Shown piece after piece: positions 29,646 through 61,500 of a DNA stretch of 64,000 bases (its first letter is position 1; every line of letters begins with the position of its first letter). The position numbers and the translations under genes are program-made. The notes below the pieces were generated by a model. That model was not told the DNA's origin. It did no database searches and worked only from the letters and a program-made list of their open reading frames with translations. This DNA is from Sphyrna mokarran. Its lineage: Eukaryota. The stretch is from the NCBI GenBank assembly GCA_024679065.1, contig JAGIQG010000010.1:62930001-62994000 (forward strand), given 5' to 3'.

Positions 29646-29787
29646 GGGCAGCATGGTCGTACAGTTGTTAGCACTGCTGCTGCACAGTGCCAGAAACCTG
29701 GATTCAATTCTGGCCTTGGGTCAGTGTCTGTGTGGAGTTTGCACGTTTTTGGGTTTTCCCTGGGTGCTCTGGTTTCCTCCCACAGTC
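29646..29787 (+). mobile_element. 5' half of a tRNA-derived SINE
   Basis: GGGCAGCATGG...TTAGCACTGCTG...GTGTGGAGTTTGCAC...GGTTTCCTCCCACAGTC. Confidence 0.85.
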
Positions 29788-29855
29788 ATGATGTAAAGAT
29801 GCCGGCGTTGGACTGAGGTGGTAAGAACTCAGTAAGAATTTAGCAATACCAATTT
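29788..29855 (-). mobile_element. Penelope terminal tail, same family as the 41.8-kb palindrome
   Basis: GATGCCGGCGTTGGACTGAGGTGGTAAGAACTCAGTAAGAATTTAGCAATACCAATTT is near-identical to 41843-41900. Confidence 0.85.
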
Positions 29856-41660: not shown

Positions 41661-41931
41661 TTACTGACATAGGGAAAGACGATTTAGCAATGTATGTTCC
41701 AATTGGCCACTCAGATTACATTGACACTTTCATGCATATAGAACAAATCTAAAATGTTTAGTCAGTAGATTACTCAGGTCACAATCTTGGCAGGGCATTC
41801 TGGAGTTGTGGGCCTATGGTTCCATCCAGAACATGATATACAGATGCCGGCGTTGGATTGGGGTGGTAAGAACTCAGTAAGAATTTAGCAACACCAATTT
41901 ATAATCCAACCGATTTATTTGATAGTAAAAA

Positions 41932-41965
41932 TGCAAGCTTTCGATTCCTGTGTCTTCCTCAGGCA
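41932..41965 (-). ncRNA. Minimal hammerhead-ribozyme-like motif (mirror copy)
   Basis: TGC-CTGAGGA-AGACACAGGAATC-GAAA-GCTT-GCA on the minus strand; one stem II mismatch. Confidence 0.5.
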
Positions 41966-42000
41966 AATGCAGTGTTCTGGTCAGACCAGAACACTGCATT

Positions 42001-42034
42001 TGCCTGAGGAAGACACAGGAGTCGAAAGCTCGTG
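42001..42034 (+). ncRNA. Minimal type I hammerhead-ribozyme-like motif
   Basis: TGC-CTGAGGA-A-GAC-ACAGGA-GTC-GAAA-GCTC-GTG: CUGANGA and GAAA boxes, short stem II, palindromic AGCT in place of stem III, as described for Penelope hammerheads. Confidence 0.6.
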
Positions 42035-44084
42035 TTTTTACTATCAAATAAATCGGTTGGATTATAAATTGGTGTTGCTAAATTCTTACTGAGTTCTTTC
42101 CATCCAGAACTGACATTAACCAAGTTTGTAGGATCACTGAAGCTGGGGAAGTATCCCATTGTGTTGGAGTTAGTGGGTGTTAGGATCCACTACCCAGTGT
42201 ATCATTGTTTCTGACCAAGTCCATGCCCAAGGAAACTCACTATTTGCCTACCCTTGAAAAGGGTATGAGAATTGCTGACCCACACCAACACTCTCTTCAT
42301 CCCCCTGCCAAATGTTCGCCCACCCCGCTACCCTCCACCATTCTCCCCCACCATACTACCACACCCATCCTATGTTTTCAAAGCAATCTGAACAAAAGGA
42401 ACAATCTGAAACACTCTGAGGTCTTTGTTGACTTAGGACCTTGTTTGGCCTGTACCCTAAAAACTGGTGCTCAATATGGGTGTCATCAATGAAGGATGGT
42501 AATGAAAATTCTTTAAGTGAAGTTGAATTATAGAATGTAGCAGTGAAATAGATCTCTGGTTATCAACACTAGAAGGATGTTTAACAAACACTGTTTAAGG
42601 AAAGCAGGCTTACAGATCTCATGTTGAAATGATACTCTACCTTGCAGCTCTGATGTTGGCCATCATTACTCATAGTGCTGACAGGACTGATGATAACCAT
42701 GAAGTTGTTTATTCAGTCTGATAGAACATCTCATTTCACTGTAATGTTGGTAAGTTGTCTCTCCCTTATCACTGATTATCTCCTTTTGTATCCTGAGGTA
42801 TCTCATATACAGATGAGACAAAATCCCCAGATTATTTTACTTACTATAATGAATTGTTAAGTGTATTTGTACTGCAGCAAGATCACAATTTTAGTACTTT
42901 GAACTTTGTCTTTCTGCAATTTGCCTATGTCCCAAAAACACTGTACAATGCAACAATATTTTAATAACACATCCTATTTGTTTTAAACCTTGAAATGACA
43001 GTGGAGAAGGCTAAGATCAGTACTTTCTATTCATGCACATACATATTTTCAATGCATACACATACAATACATAAACCACTCTAATCTTAGCAAATTGTAT
43101 ATTTATTGCTTACTCATTCTCTCATTGTTTTAGAATGGGATTGTGTGGAGAGCCGTGTTCATGTTTGAAGTAAGTGACATAGCCAACAACATGCAGTTGA
43201 AGTTTATGTAAAAGGGAACACTATCAGCTGCTCACTGCTCACGAACTTTGTGTAAGAATTACTACACTGTAAGTTGTAATGCAATGACTTCAGTAGTTAG
43301 CAACTTTTTTAGCTATGAAATTAAATGTTGGAAACAAAATAATGAAACAAACTTGGCAACTCCTGTAGAAACATATAAAGCCAATATCATTGAACATCAC
43401 CCTGAAAGTAACATTTTATGTACTATAATAATTAATAGTTTCCTTAATGGCCCATGAGTTGAACTTAGCTCAAGTTATCAGATACTTAATGAAATATACA
43501 TGTTTCCGATCACAGGATTCCTCTCTGAAGTAATAAGGAGAGATACATCAATACTACCAACAAGGTGCTTCAAATATTGCCAAGCAAGTATTCTTGGCTT
43601 CGATGAACTTCAGCTTAATTTGGAGAAGCTTGGAAAAAGAAATTGTATATCGTGAATTTATTGTAAATTATACTGCACCAATAGGCTACGGTCTGGTGCA
43701 CCATTCAGCACGTATTTTATTACCGCAAATAATTAAATGCAATGCTCGACGTAGATCCTTGTTTTTAAGTATCATAGTCAAATCAGTCAGCAACTACTAC
43801 TATATCCTAATTTAAGTAGCAACACCCCGTTTAAAAATTCACAGCTTTGGCTTTTGCTTCAAAACAGCAAGAAAGAATACTGTTAGGTAAAGGCAAAATA
43901 CTGCACATGCTTGACTCAGAAACACGCCACTTGCTTTGTGGAAGGAACTATCAACTGCCCATTCTCCAGAAAAAGACCGTACAATTGCTGTCCAGATTGT
44001 ATCTCTAAAAACAGTGAAAATGTAGCTAGAGCTTGCCTTGCTAATATTTAATTATGTTTTAATGCAAAATATATGTTTATCAGC

Positions 44085-51480: not shown

Positions 51481-52249
51481 AAAGCAATTATTAATATGGG
51501 GATCAAATATATTCTGCTATCTTGCGATTACTAAAGCAGCAACAGAAAATAGGTGTTGTTCTCGTGTTTCTGGTAATTCTAACTTTCAAAACTGATTATT
51601 ATTCAAAGTAAGGTTGATAAAAGGCTTTAATAATTAATTCCATATTATTTCCTTTCTCTTCCTTTTGTGCAAAGCTTACATAGAGCCTTTCATATGGTAA
51701 AGCATCCTAAGGTGCATCATTGGAATGTTATCAGTAGATAGCTACAAAGTTGAAACTAAAGGCCATCTTAAAGGATGAAGGAAAAGTAGTGATGTGGGCG
51801 GTGCTAAGACAACTCAAAAGATGCTCCATATTTCTTTGTTAACTTCTCTCAAAATTAAAAAAATTAAAATTTCTCTGAAACTTCATTTTGTTTACCATTA
51901 TAAGAAGGCTTTTGGTCCAAAACAGCTGTCTTTTTTTTATATTATTAGTACCTTCGCAACCATACAATTTTTCCCTTGGTGTAGGATCCCCAGCCTGTTG
52001 AAACACATTACGAACACTTCTTCACTGGGACTTTAACCTATTGCAATTTCACATATTGTAGTCAATAAGTTCTGCCATTGGATTTGAGCCCAGTGATAGG
52101 GACACTACAAGAAAGCCTCAGTTGCCAATTAATGCCAGTAGATGTGCAGAAAAGGCCAAAATATGTGACTCCATTTTTTTCATTCTGCACTTTTTCCAAC
52201 AAAAATACCAATGAACTTCAGCATTACTTGATTTTAAAAGTTTAAACAT

Positions 52250-52480
52250 AAACTGTGGTTGGATTTGAACCTAGGTCCCCAAAATATTACTCTGGATTAC
52301 TACTCCAGTGACAATACAACTATGCCATTGCCTGTGGATTTTGAGCACAAATTTCAACAACAATTGTAGTTGGATTTGAACCTGTTTATGGACAATGGTT
52401 TAGTGATATTGTCATGGACTAGTAATCCAGATACCACGAGTAATGTTCTGGGGAGCCACGTTCAAACCCAACACAGTTGG
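52250..52480. mobile_element. Two SINE head fragments in opposite orientation (13775 family)
   Basis: Minus: GGATTTGAACCTAGGTCCCC...CCAGTGACAATAC; plus: GTCATGGACTAGTAATCCAG...GTTCAAACCC. Confidence 0.6.
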
Positions 52481-52779
52481 TATTAAAAGTTTAAGCTAAG
52501 TTTTATTCTATTGGTAGCCATTTTTACTTAATTATTCACCATTTCAAAGACTGACTTTGTGCTTACATTCTGAAGGTCACATATATGCTGTGTTGCTAGT
52601 GGAACTCTGAACTGATTTCTTTCAAACTCTGTCTCGGAATATAGTGAGAACTAATTACCTGCACAGTTATGACATAAATTTATAAGTATTGTACTGGATG
52701 AAACTCAGAATCCAACATCAATTCTTCGTCGGTGTTTATCTTTCATAAAATAAGACAGTAAAAGCAATAGTTTTCCAGG

Positions 52780-57424: not shown

Positions 57425-57783
57425 GTGATCTGGAGATGTTGCCATTGGACTGGGGTACACACAGTAAGAAGTCTCACAACACCAAGTTTATTTGGAATCA
57501 TGAGCTCCTTCATCAGGTGAGTGGAAAGGTAGGTTTCACAAACACGGCATAGAAAGACAGCAACACAATTGCAAGTTAATGGTTGGAATGTGAGCCTTTA
57601 CAGATAATCAAGTCTTTACATGTAATAGACAGTGTGAGTGGAGAGAAGGATAATTATAGTTTAAAGAGATATGAATTGTCTCAAGCCAGGACAGTTAGTA
57701 GGATTTTGCACATGGTGGGGGTTACATATAGTGTGACATGAATCCAAGATCCTGTTTGAGACCATCCTCATGTGTACGGAACT
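57425..57783 (-). mobile_element. Penelope-like 3' end (GIY-YIG C-terminus plus terminal repeat)
   Basis: Minus strand encodes FRTHEDGLKQDLGFMSHYM*; homologous to ~61010-61360; hammerhead stem II/GAAA deleted at ~57500. Confidence 0.85.
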
Positions 57784-58559: not shown

Positions 58560-61500
58560 GTCTCTTCTCCCTCCAGTGTTTCTATTAGTGTGGCCATTTC
58601 AGCAATCTTTCTCTGGCAGGCATGTAATCTCAGTTTCCTTTTCTGACTGAATTGTTGCTTTGTCTAGTTCTCCCTGACACAACACCTTCAACTGAGTGAC
58701 TCCATTTTCCAATTTTTTCCTTTAGTCTTCTGCATCAACCAATCTTCTGCATCAACCAGTCTTCTGCTTGAACCTGAGTAGTTCTTTATTCCATGCATCC
58801 ACTTCCTAGTCCACCTGTATTTTGCACTCTACGTTCACCAGTTCCAGTTTGATCTAAGCCATTTCCAGTTCCAGCTTCTGCAGCAACTTTTCTCCTTTAT
58901 CTTGATATTCATTTGAAGTGCCCTGAGATCAACTGACAATTTTAAGTGGCCCCTCTTGTTAAGAGAGTCCTCTGCAGCAAATGCAGTCTTTTGGCCTGTT
59001 TCTGAATTTGTTCTAATTTAGCTTTATTTTGTTGCTTTTCCAAACTGTCACTCAATTGGGAGCTGATTTGTTTGCGTCTAATGATTCTGTTCTTCTTGGT
59101 TTCTGATTTTTATTTTCAGTATGTGCAAGTTTAACTCTTAGTCCATTGCTTTGCTTTTGCAATCCATTCAGCTTCTCCATTTCTGAGCTTCTTCCAATGT
59201 GAATCATTTTCTTCCAACAACATTTAATAACAATAACAGACACATTCCTTTTGTTATAAATTCTACTTCTACGTTCAGCATTTCTTCCTTCTACTTATTA
59301 AATTTATTAGATAATTCTTCTGAATTGTTAACTTGTTCCAATAGTTGTGTTCTTTGAGTTGTTTCATTGTTATGTCCTCAAATATCAGACAGTTTTTACC
59401 TCTTTGCAGAATTTTAATTTCTCAAGCTCATTTGTGTATTCCAGGTGACTGACTATTCAATCATTCAATTGGATCTCTAAAGAATTTCTAATAGTGGCTA
59501 TGATCTAATTTCTGCTTCAACAGTTTAGCGATCCCTGCAGTAGATGATACAGGATGTCTCACGAGTGCACTGGATCAAATGTTTGATGCGTTTCATTCTG
59601 GGACTAGCAGTTCTCTTACACATCACAAAACTGAAAGCATTCATTGCATTGGAGTTCCTTGGCTTTTCTCCAGTTCCGTGCTATGACTTTGGTTGCTGAG
59701 TTCCGTTTGTGCTTATTCTCTCAACCCTTTTTACCTTTTAGTCACATCTTCATGCTTTAATTTCAGTTCTTTCATCACTTGCTGGTGAATATTATACTGT
59801 TTCTTACTAGTCCTAATAGATTTATAGTTACTTCCACCTTTCTCATTGTGTTTGCATTTTCCCTTGGCCTTGAAGTAAGTGGGCTGCTTCTCATTTAGAT
59901 TAGAGTCACAAGCTTTTACTTCATTTTCTATTTGCTGTGAAGTTTATCCAACTCATTTTTCTTCACTCTTACCTACTCTGCTGTGGCTTGTCTTACTTTC
60001 TGACTAATTACAGCTTTATTGCTTGCTTGTAATTTATTACTAAAATGTTAAAGACATTTCTCACTACAGTGCAAAAGGATGGGACACGACTAAGTCTTTC
60101 TTGCTTTCAGCTCTTCAATTAGTCATTTAGATACTTCTGTTGCCTTCTTTCTGCGTCTTTTGTTATTGTCCTTTTTTTGGGGTTTTCCATTGCCCTCTTT
60201 TTAGGATCTTCCAATGCTCCACCCTCTTCAGGGTTCCTCAGCATCAACTTCTGTGGAGTCTTTCACTGCCTATATGTGGATCTGTGAGTCTGACACTGCC
60301 TTGTCCTTAAAGGCCTTATTATTACTTCTGAGCTCCAGCATTGCATCTTCCCTGAGGTCTTAATTTCCTCCACTGAGGTCTTGCATTACTTACAGACCCC
60401 CTTTTGAGAGTTGCTCTCTACCTAGGCTCTTCTCTCATCTTCCTGTCCCTTGTCCTTTGTTCCTTCTTGCAGTTGTTACCTTAAACATTATACAACTTTA
60501 AACTTTAGCCTTCAACATATCATCAATGAAGACAAAATCTCGCTAAGGCCATCCCCAAACCCTCACTATTTACCTTCAAACAATCGCACTACCTCAAACA
60601 AACTATTGTACGCAGCAAACTACCTAATCTTCAGGAGAACAGTGATCACAACTCCACACAATCCAGCCATAGCAAGCTCTGTAAGACGTGCCAGATCATC
60701 AACACTGATGACTTTATCTACATAAGAACACCATCCACCAGGTACACAGTACATACTCTTGTGAATCGGCCAACATTGTCTACCTGACATGCTGCAGGAA
60801 AGAATATATCAGGGAGAACATGCAAATGCTATGGCAATGTATAAACGGACACTGCTTAACAATCACCAGGCAGGAGTGTTTCCTTCCTGTTGGGGAGCAC
60901 TTCAGTAGTCATTTCATTCAGCCTCTGGTTTTCGGATAACCGTTCTCCAAGGCAGCCTTCTCAACATATGATAATGCAGAATTGCTGAGCAGAAACTGAT
61001 AGCCAAGTTCTGCACACATGAGGATGGTCTCAACTGGAATCTTAGGTTCATGTCACACTATCTGTAACCCTCATGACTTGCCTGGGTTTGCAAAATCTCA
61101 CTAAATGTTCTGGCTGGAAACAATACACATCTCTTTAACCCGTGCTTAATCCTCTCTCCACTCACATTATCTAAACCTGTAAAGTCTAGATTACCTGTTA
61201 AGACTCAAATTCCAACCATTCTCTTGTAATTGAGTTTGTGTCTATATATGCCTTGTTTGTGAAACAAATCCTACACTCACCTGTTGAAGGAGCTGTGCTC
61301 AAGCTCATGCTACCAAATAAACCTGTTGAACTTTAACTGGTGTTGTGAGGCTATTTACTAAACTTTAAATGCATTATTCCTTTAAGACCATCAACTTTCC
61401 TTTTTTTAAAAAACTACCACAGCTGCTTTTCTTTCTTTTTCTTTCTGTGCTTTTCTTGTGCTTCTTGAATTTTGCCAGGAATCTGCAGCCCCTCCTTTTG

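Follow-up and report, generated by a model that had tools for sequence, protein, structure and literature searches.

The question raised by this locus, which lies in a window of Sphyrna mokarran DNA (the whole 64,000-nt stretch that was analysed), is whether a 231-bp fold-back carrying two hammerhead-like motifs is a minimal Penelope insertion product or a non-autonomous, MITE-like family, the two options left by a sequence-only reading. Sequence self-comparison recovered the arrangement described there, i.e. two 115-bp arms (41868-41982 and 41984-42098) flanking the single base A41983 and differing by only four transitions, at 41945/42021, 41935/42031, 41933/42033 and 41932/42034, which appear on the + strand as three G-T mismatches and one A-C mismatch. 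When judged against natural family copies, three of these four differences are attributable to decay of an ancestral CGCG, in agreement with the earlier interpretation, and the remaining one, in the left arm, is a G>A outside any CpG. The 35-bp one-sided tail on the left and the 13-bp TSD, TTCCATCCAGAAC, were also confirmed, with both copies of the latter found and a single copy present at empty sites. One TSD base overlaps the element at each end, namely T42098 and G41832, the latter matching the family's continuation; the suggested microhomology between the TSD and the element therefore stands at 1 nt per end, and beyond that there is just a loose 6/8 likeness on the right. A41983 is the family base preceding position 1 and therefore belongs to the tail-less arm, and the two arms meet at a junction where the microhomology amounts to 1 nt. 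The insert thus consists of the last 150 nt of the element (pLTR plus tail) and an inverted, tail-less copy of positions 0-115 (Table 1).

Table 1. Coordinates of the fold-back insertion and its target site within the window.
Feature	Position	Strand	Remark
Left TSD copy, 13 bp	41820..41832		Present once in the empty sites of runs X2 and X6
Penelope tail, 35 nt, family 3' end	41833..41867	-	All 30 family loci compared end here
Tailed arm, pLTR family positions 1-115	41868..41982	- (sense on -)	Matches family copies
Left-arm minimal hammerhead motif	41932..41965	-	C-A mismatch in stem II; H17 is U
Central A, part of the tail-less arm	41983	+	Family base preceding position 1
Tail-less arm, family positions 1-115	41984..42098	+ (sense on +)	Stops at the inner edge of the tail
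Right-arm minimal hammerhead motif	42001..42034	+	Core intact, C17 at 42031, stem I weakened
Right TSD copy	42098..42110		First base common to the arm
Left dyad half-site TG	41817..41818	+	With CA at 42114-42115 gives TG-N17-CA before insertion
Right dyad half-site CA	42114..42115	+	Pairs with TG at 41817-41818

Long palindromes are a known assembly risk, and no sequencing-run contig covers the entire insert. An artefact of assembly can nevertheless be dismissed almost entirely, given that the arms differ at four sites, the TSD frames the insert, and contigs of run X1, which may be the assembled sample itself, span both junctions (by 17 and 23 nt) with no differing letter. Runs X2 and X6, representing two other organisms, have a single contig each that joins 41819 to 42098 and so presents an empty site with one TSD copy, in flanks that are ~6-7% different from the locus. 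The 278-base insertion and its TSD are therefore real and younger than the splits from these organisms.

Searching the 2.77-Gb genome with the tailed arm placed the insert within a larger family. Out of 1496 candidates, the best 40 are 97-100% matches, the majority of which extend upstream into one common element. The autonomous partner that had been sought was found in the natural copy L083, which contains a 449-aa frame with matches to RVT_1 (E 1.5e-6) and GIY-YIG (E 1.6e-4), each scoring ~1 bit or less below the Pfam cut-off, and a CX4CxxC linker at residue 311. Longer but broken copies of the family were also found. As in a 3' pLTR, the hammerhead motif is located within the final 150 nt, downstream of the ORF stop. 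By its domain content, the parent is a young EN+ Penelope-like element with RT and GIY-YIG domains and a linker of the Neptune/Nematis type. The family match, the inverted 5'-truncated copy, the single tail and the TSD together support the first of the two options and identify the insert, with near certainty, as a Penelope insertion product. A 24-nt word from the tail has 334 exact matches in the genome, and a manual tally of the first 30 yielded 24 with an inverted arm, 5 simple and 1 unresolved; the head-to-head stub layout is the commonest product of the family. Copy L007 was removed as a duplicate on the basis of a flank match, which probably reflects a common host repeat.

Several family copies have features of their own. 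L082 (700-4570, 6040-6490 and 9190-9500 in reverse-strand numbering) is a long copy within a diverged minisatellite array, and on its sense strand, ~70 nt upstream of position 1, donor-, branch-point- and acceptor-like words bracket a possible short pLTR intron. The proposal of a pLTR intron ending at the locus centre, based on words picked out by eye, was not supported, with 0 matches for a spliced genomic copy. A further proposal, that unit-length copies start at -2540, was dropped because three loci continue further upstream. In L005/L085 and L016, a single TSD encloses either a pair of inverted arms or a recurring inverted/direct block, which suggests repeated rounds of priming.

An alternative reading is that the 231-bp hairpin is itself a non-autonomous, MITE- or retrozyme-like unit that is copied whole, and both the 22 genomic copies of the locus's exact centre and the complex centre common to L036 and L037 are in keeping with such copying. 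However, the genome-wide search for the GGTC-A-GACC centre found these 22 copies to span many subfamilies and both polarities. They differ in stem II type, polarity and outer ends, and the locus's own stem II type is absent from the other same-centre copies (22 read). The central A belongs to the tail-less arm in 13 copies and to the tailed one in the other 9, some of these polarity assignments being uncertain where an arm is broken, and the centres of L036 and L037 are of opposite polarity. A pattern search for head-to-head arms returned 135 places in the genome, and the first 50, chosen by centre alone, were fetched; these contained 42 distinct centres, so that the MITE-like option fails the check on variable centres that had been set beforehand. 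There do not appear to be homogeneous copies with a common interior and fixed ends, as in MITEs, among these fold-backs. Non-LTR retrozymes (PMC7229834; bioRxiv 10.64898/2026.07.22.740005) resemble the locus in being non-coding, hammerhead-bearing and PLE-related, but are described as tandem direct repeats, whereas the locus is an inverted pair that does not provide two sense ribozymes per RNA and lacks the at least two tandem units with complete hammerheads that characterize retrozymes. Copying as a unit is thus largely refuted and very unlikely, and the centre of the locus is a 1-nt-microhomology junction that has arisen repeatedly.

A sharp hot spot for junctions at the locus centre was also considered and rejected. 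Counting windows with anchors from the same subfamilies held 9, 41 and 135 fold-backs, the next window held 31 (its anchor being present in 9/50), and a window near the cleavage site, with an anchor common to older subfamilies, held 183. Fold-back density climbs toward the ribozyme front, and these window counts demonstrate neither a peak at the locus centre nor a tie to ribozyme cleavage.

Target sites were rebuilt in three sets from those sites with a TSD of at least 9, which led to 3/50, 20/51 and 9/40 being dropped. The dyad TG-N16-CA, centred on the 12-13-bp TSD, was present in 61 of the 109 rebuilt sites, against a genomic background of 2.3%. By set, it occurred in 30/47, 15/31 and 16/31, compared to shuffled means of 0.45-0.75, and a TG/CA gap of either 16 or 17 was seen in 41/47 and 27/31. 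The half-site consensus is approximately (G)CCAG. The TSD begins at spacer base 3 in 17/30 cases and finishes at base 14 in 19/30, i.e. in a symmetric register, and outer-junction microhomology amounts to 1.44 nt (n=18) and 1.68 nt (n=28) versus nulls of 0.39 and 0.45. The target of the locus itself, TG-N17-CA, is a weaker match to the family motif. A limited search of open-access literature listings, along with PMC12910113 and PMC3681739, found no published dyad target for Penelope elements.

Independent insertions were observed at the same host-repeat spots, all fitting the dyad (L031, L074 and L156), as were further common-spot groups that fit it (L032, L037, L068, L121, L129, L135 and L141, along with L041 and L069). 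The repeats hit repeatedly by the family are presumably CR1-like and SINE-like. Within the window, a 69-bp piece of the same family at 29787-29855 (tail and 3' end, 93% identical) has its tail adjoining the same SINE spot struck by L041 and L069, with no TSD seen nearby.

The layout of the fold-backs bears on how they were formed. In all 50 fetched, one arm ends at 144-158 and the other is shorter, mostly ending at 101-120. Among 40 further fold-backs there were 0 two-tailed cases, with 33 passing the tail score on one arm and the remaining 7 being older and below that score; if each end were free to pick its start site, the one-tail layout would arise in at most half of cases. The arms are of the same subfamily in 45 of 46 typed fold-backs (shuffled mean 10.4, maximum 21). 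A more direct comparison by rare variants is weak, 6 being common to both arms (shuffled mean 2.7, maximum 7) with only 12 loci usable. Templated insertions at the centres show a modest excess, with a mean longest match of 6.0 versus 4.3 when shuffled (n=21). The one-tail rule, the arm concordance, the dyad target and the microhomology together favour a staggered double cut in which both ends served as primers. The locus is a dead-end, 5'-truncated head-to-head insertion of a young Neptune/Nematis-type element, for which, on balance, both strands of a loosely symmetric target were probably cut and one RNA was copied from both ends. More tentatively, the family as a whole may act as a dimeric, site-preferring nuclease that recognizes a CTG-N16-CAG dyad, cuts both strands 12 nt apart and copies one RNA, bound at its two start sites, from both ends simultaneously.

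In double priming, each strand would be nicked by an endonuclease dimer ~2 nt 5' of its CA(G), leaving 12-nt 3' overhangs, the nick positions and overhang polarity being those implied by the TSDs. One cut end would then prime at the outer edge of the tail, at ~position 150, and the other at its inner edge, at ~position 110. Both cDNAs would end early, microhomology-driven repair would unite their ends, in many cases adding short templated insertions, and gap filling would produce the TSD. Some considerations count against priming from both ends. The equal strand start sites in the account of Frangieh et al. (PMC11167929) do not by themselves yield the one-tail rule, palindromes lose central DNA once inserted, such that the uneven centres could be secondary, and agreement between the arms would equally be expected if a hairpin had been copied, if a single source were active at any one time, or if conversion had occurred.

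The main rival of double priming is that, after the same cut, the first cDNA folds and copies back until it is blocked at the tail's inner edge, following which the copied-back end joins the other overhang and later deletions reshape the centre. This is the less likely course of events, although it explains the single tail and the same-subfamily arms, as well as the near-symmetric centres seen among 29 inverted copies, in which the arms were within 5 nt of each other in 9/29 and the tailed arm was longer in 11/29. Palindromic junctions have also been interpreted in print as products of self-priming, in that case on an antisense template (PMC3846280). However, a hairpin copy of a tailed cDNA cannot give a longer tail-less arm, and in 9/29 of the inverted copies the tail-less arm extends upstream beyond the tailed one by 9-253 nt, a pattern that later deletions at palindrome centres could mimic. 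The occurrence of the central A on either arm among the 22 same-centre copies likewise argues against copying back, and the stop at 101-120 would be without an independent cause, but matches the second start site reported in vitro (PMC11167929).

In line with the sequence-only reading, both arms read outward as a minimal hammerhead motif, TGC-CTGAGGA-A-stem II-GAAA-GCT-Y-GYR, in which H17 is C42031 for the right arm and T for the left one. Stem I of the right arm comprises one C-G and two G-U pairs, and the left arm has a C-A mismatch in stem II and U17. The core, the bulged base, G10.1-C11.1 and the palindromic 15.2-16.2 are present in both arms and in the natural copy L082, in which stems I and II are 3 + 3 bp. 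Minimal PLE hammerheads as described by Cervera and de la Pena (2014, PMC4209133) share with the locus this core, the extra base between 9 and 10.1, G10.1-C11.1 and the palindromic 15.2-16.2. In contrast, the locus subfamily has stems I and II of just 3 bp, versus 4-5 and 7-8 bp in Schistosoma, and both copies at the locus are mutated, unlike the minimal hammerheads described there. An Rfam scan of the 64-kb window returned no hammerhead at E<=1, with a single chance-level match elsewhere. Across the subfamilies represented by L031-L080 and L157-L178, stem II changes fast (from 5 bp to 3 bp, with differing loops) and the hammerhead core and GC palindrome stay constant.

The RNA fold of the insert (-212 kcal/mol, z -30.6, equalled by 0/200 shuffles) and the arm mismatches agree with the claim of a ~115-bp hairpin with 3 G-U and 1 A-C on the + strand. 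All four arm mutations are within the hammerhead region and in part damaging. The motifs are on opposite strands, and therefore no one transcript has the pair that a dimer needs. Ribozyme activity at the locus is unlikely because there is one sense motif per transcript, the stems and H17 are damaged, and the motif is buried in the hairpin; the cut predicted after C42031 is correctly positioned, but cleavage is not to be expected from damaged motifs held in a hairpin. Judged from these features, the locus is likely not a working ribozyme, and its hammerheads are decaying passengers of the pLTR.

That the host has retained the locus as a working, regulated ribozyme or as a source of small RNAs is a reading to which a through-transcript, which would give a 115-bp hairpin, and the siRNAs yielded by inverted Penelope copies in Drosophila (PMC3681739) lend some appeal. 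It is nonetheless highly improbable, as the insert is absent in two related organisms, four mutations have accumulated per 115 bp, all in the hammerhead region and partly damaging, and each strand has one sense motif, with minimal hammerheads described as needing a partner and cleaving weakly (PMC4209133). No host gene was identified by Pfam annotation of 73 stop-to-stop frames of at least 82 aa, which gave one weak, unrelated match. Among the sequencing runs listed as containing the sequence, none was an RNA run, which bears neither way on expression. The locus is one of hundreds, without sign of function.

An inverted 5'-truncated copy, a tail at one end, a TSD and a junction palindrome constitute the published Penelope layout (PMC3846280, PMC8557442). 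Like the locus, Pen2a_Av and others (Arkhipova et al. 2013, PMC3846280) have a head-to-head inverted copy with a 30-40-bp tail at one end, and units of this type also have the TSD, junction palindrome and pLTR hammerhead seen here (PMC3846280; scheme in the Fig. 2 legend of PMC8557442). They differ from the locus in that the ORF body is wholly missing from the latter, with both copies cut back to the pLTR, and in TSD length, which is 12-13 bp here versus 8-10 in Pen2a_Av-type units (PMC3846280). A dyad target is not mentioned in the passages describing these units (PMC3846280, PMC8557442). Neptune and Nematis (PMC8557442) share with the locus family a C-terminal GIY-YIG and an upstream CX2-5CxxC linker, here CX4CxxC. 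Neptune is reported to have a microsatellite bias (PMC8557442), whereas the locus family prefers a spaced dyad and is, by its linker, of either Neptune or Nematis type.

A biochemical counterpart is the Poseidon protein PAc of Anolis, a predicted dimer that is reported to cut and extend both strands and to start at two sites delimiting the tail (Frangieh et al. 2024, PMC11167929). Two tail-delimiting ends, the use of both strands and a pLTR hammerhead are thus common to PAc and the locus family. However, PAc is from another clade and is described as having an ATT preference and priming without homology in vitro, whereas the locus family has a CA(G) half-site and 1-3-nt microhomology (PMC11167929 for PAc).

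Other Penelope-related sequences are present in the window. An older Penelope of another family at 61006-61380 retains a GIY-YIG frame end, a pLTR and a decayed hammerhead (61255-61380), and the claim that the Penelope near 61288 is of a distinct family holds, this element being both different and older. An inverted piece at 57503-57783 is related to it (77%). A second, much older fold-back of ~256 bp at 52237-52492 is 68.5% self-complementary.

The stub structure was already known and the locus is ordinary, being moderately useful within the family record of Penelope integration. The origin of the Penelope tail and of the inverted ends has been stated as an open question (PMC8557442), which the target motif, the predicted nick positions and the one-tail rule turn into a simple in vitro test. 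If true, the dimeric-nuclease mechanism would explain why there is a tail and why it is one-sided, along with the inverted pLTR, the 12-13-bp TSD and, without special targeting, the CR1/SINE hot spots. Short fold-backs such as the locus at 41820-42110 would then be a direct record of integration.
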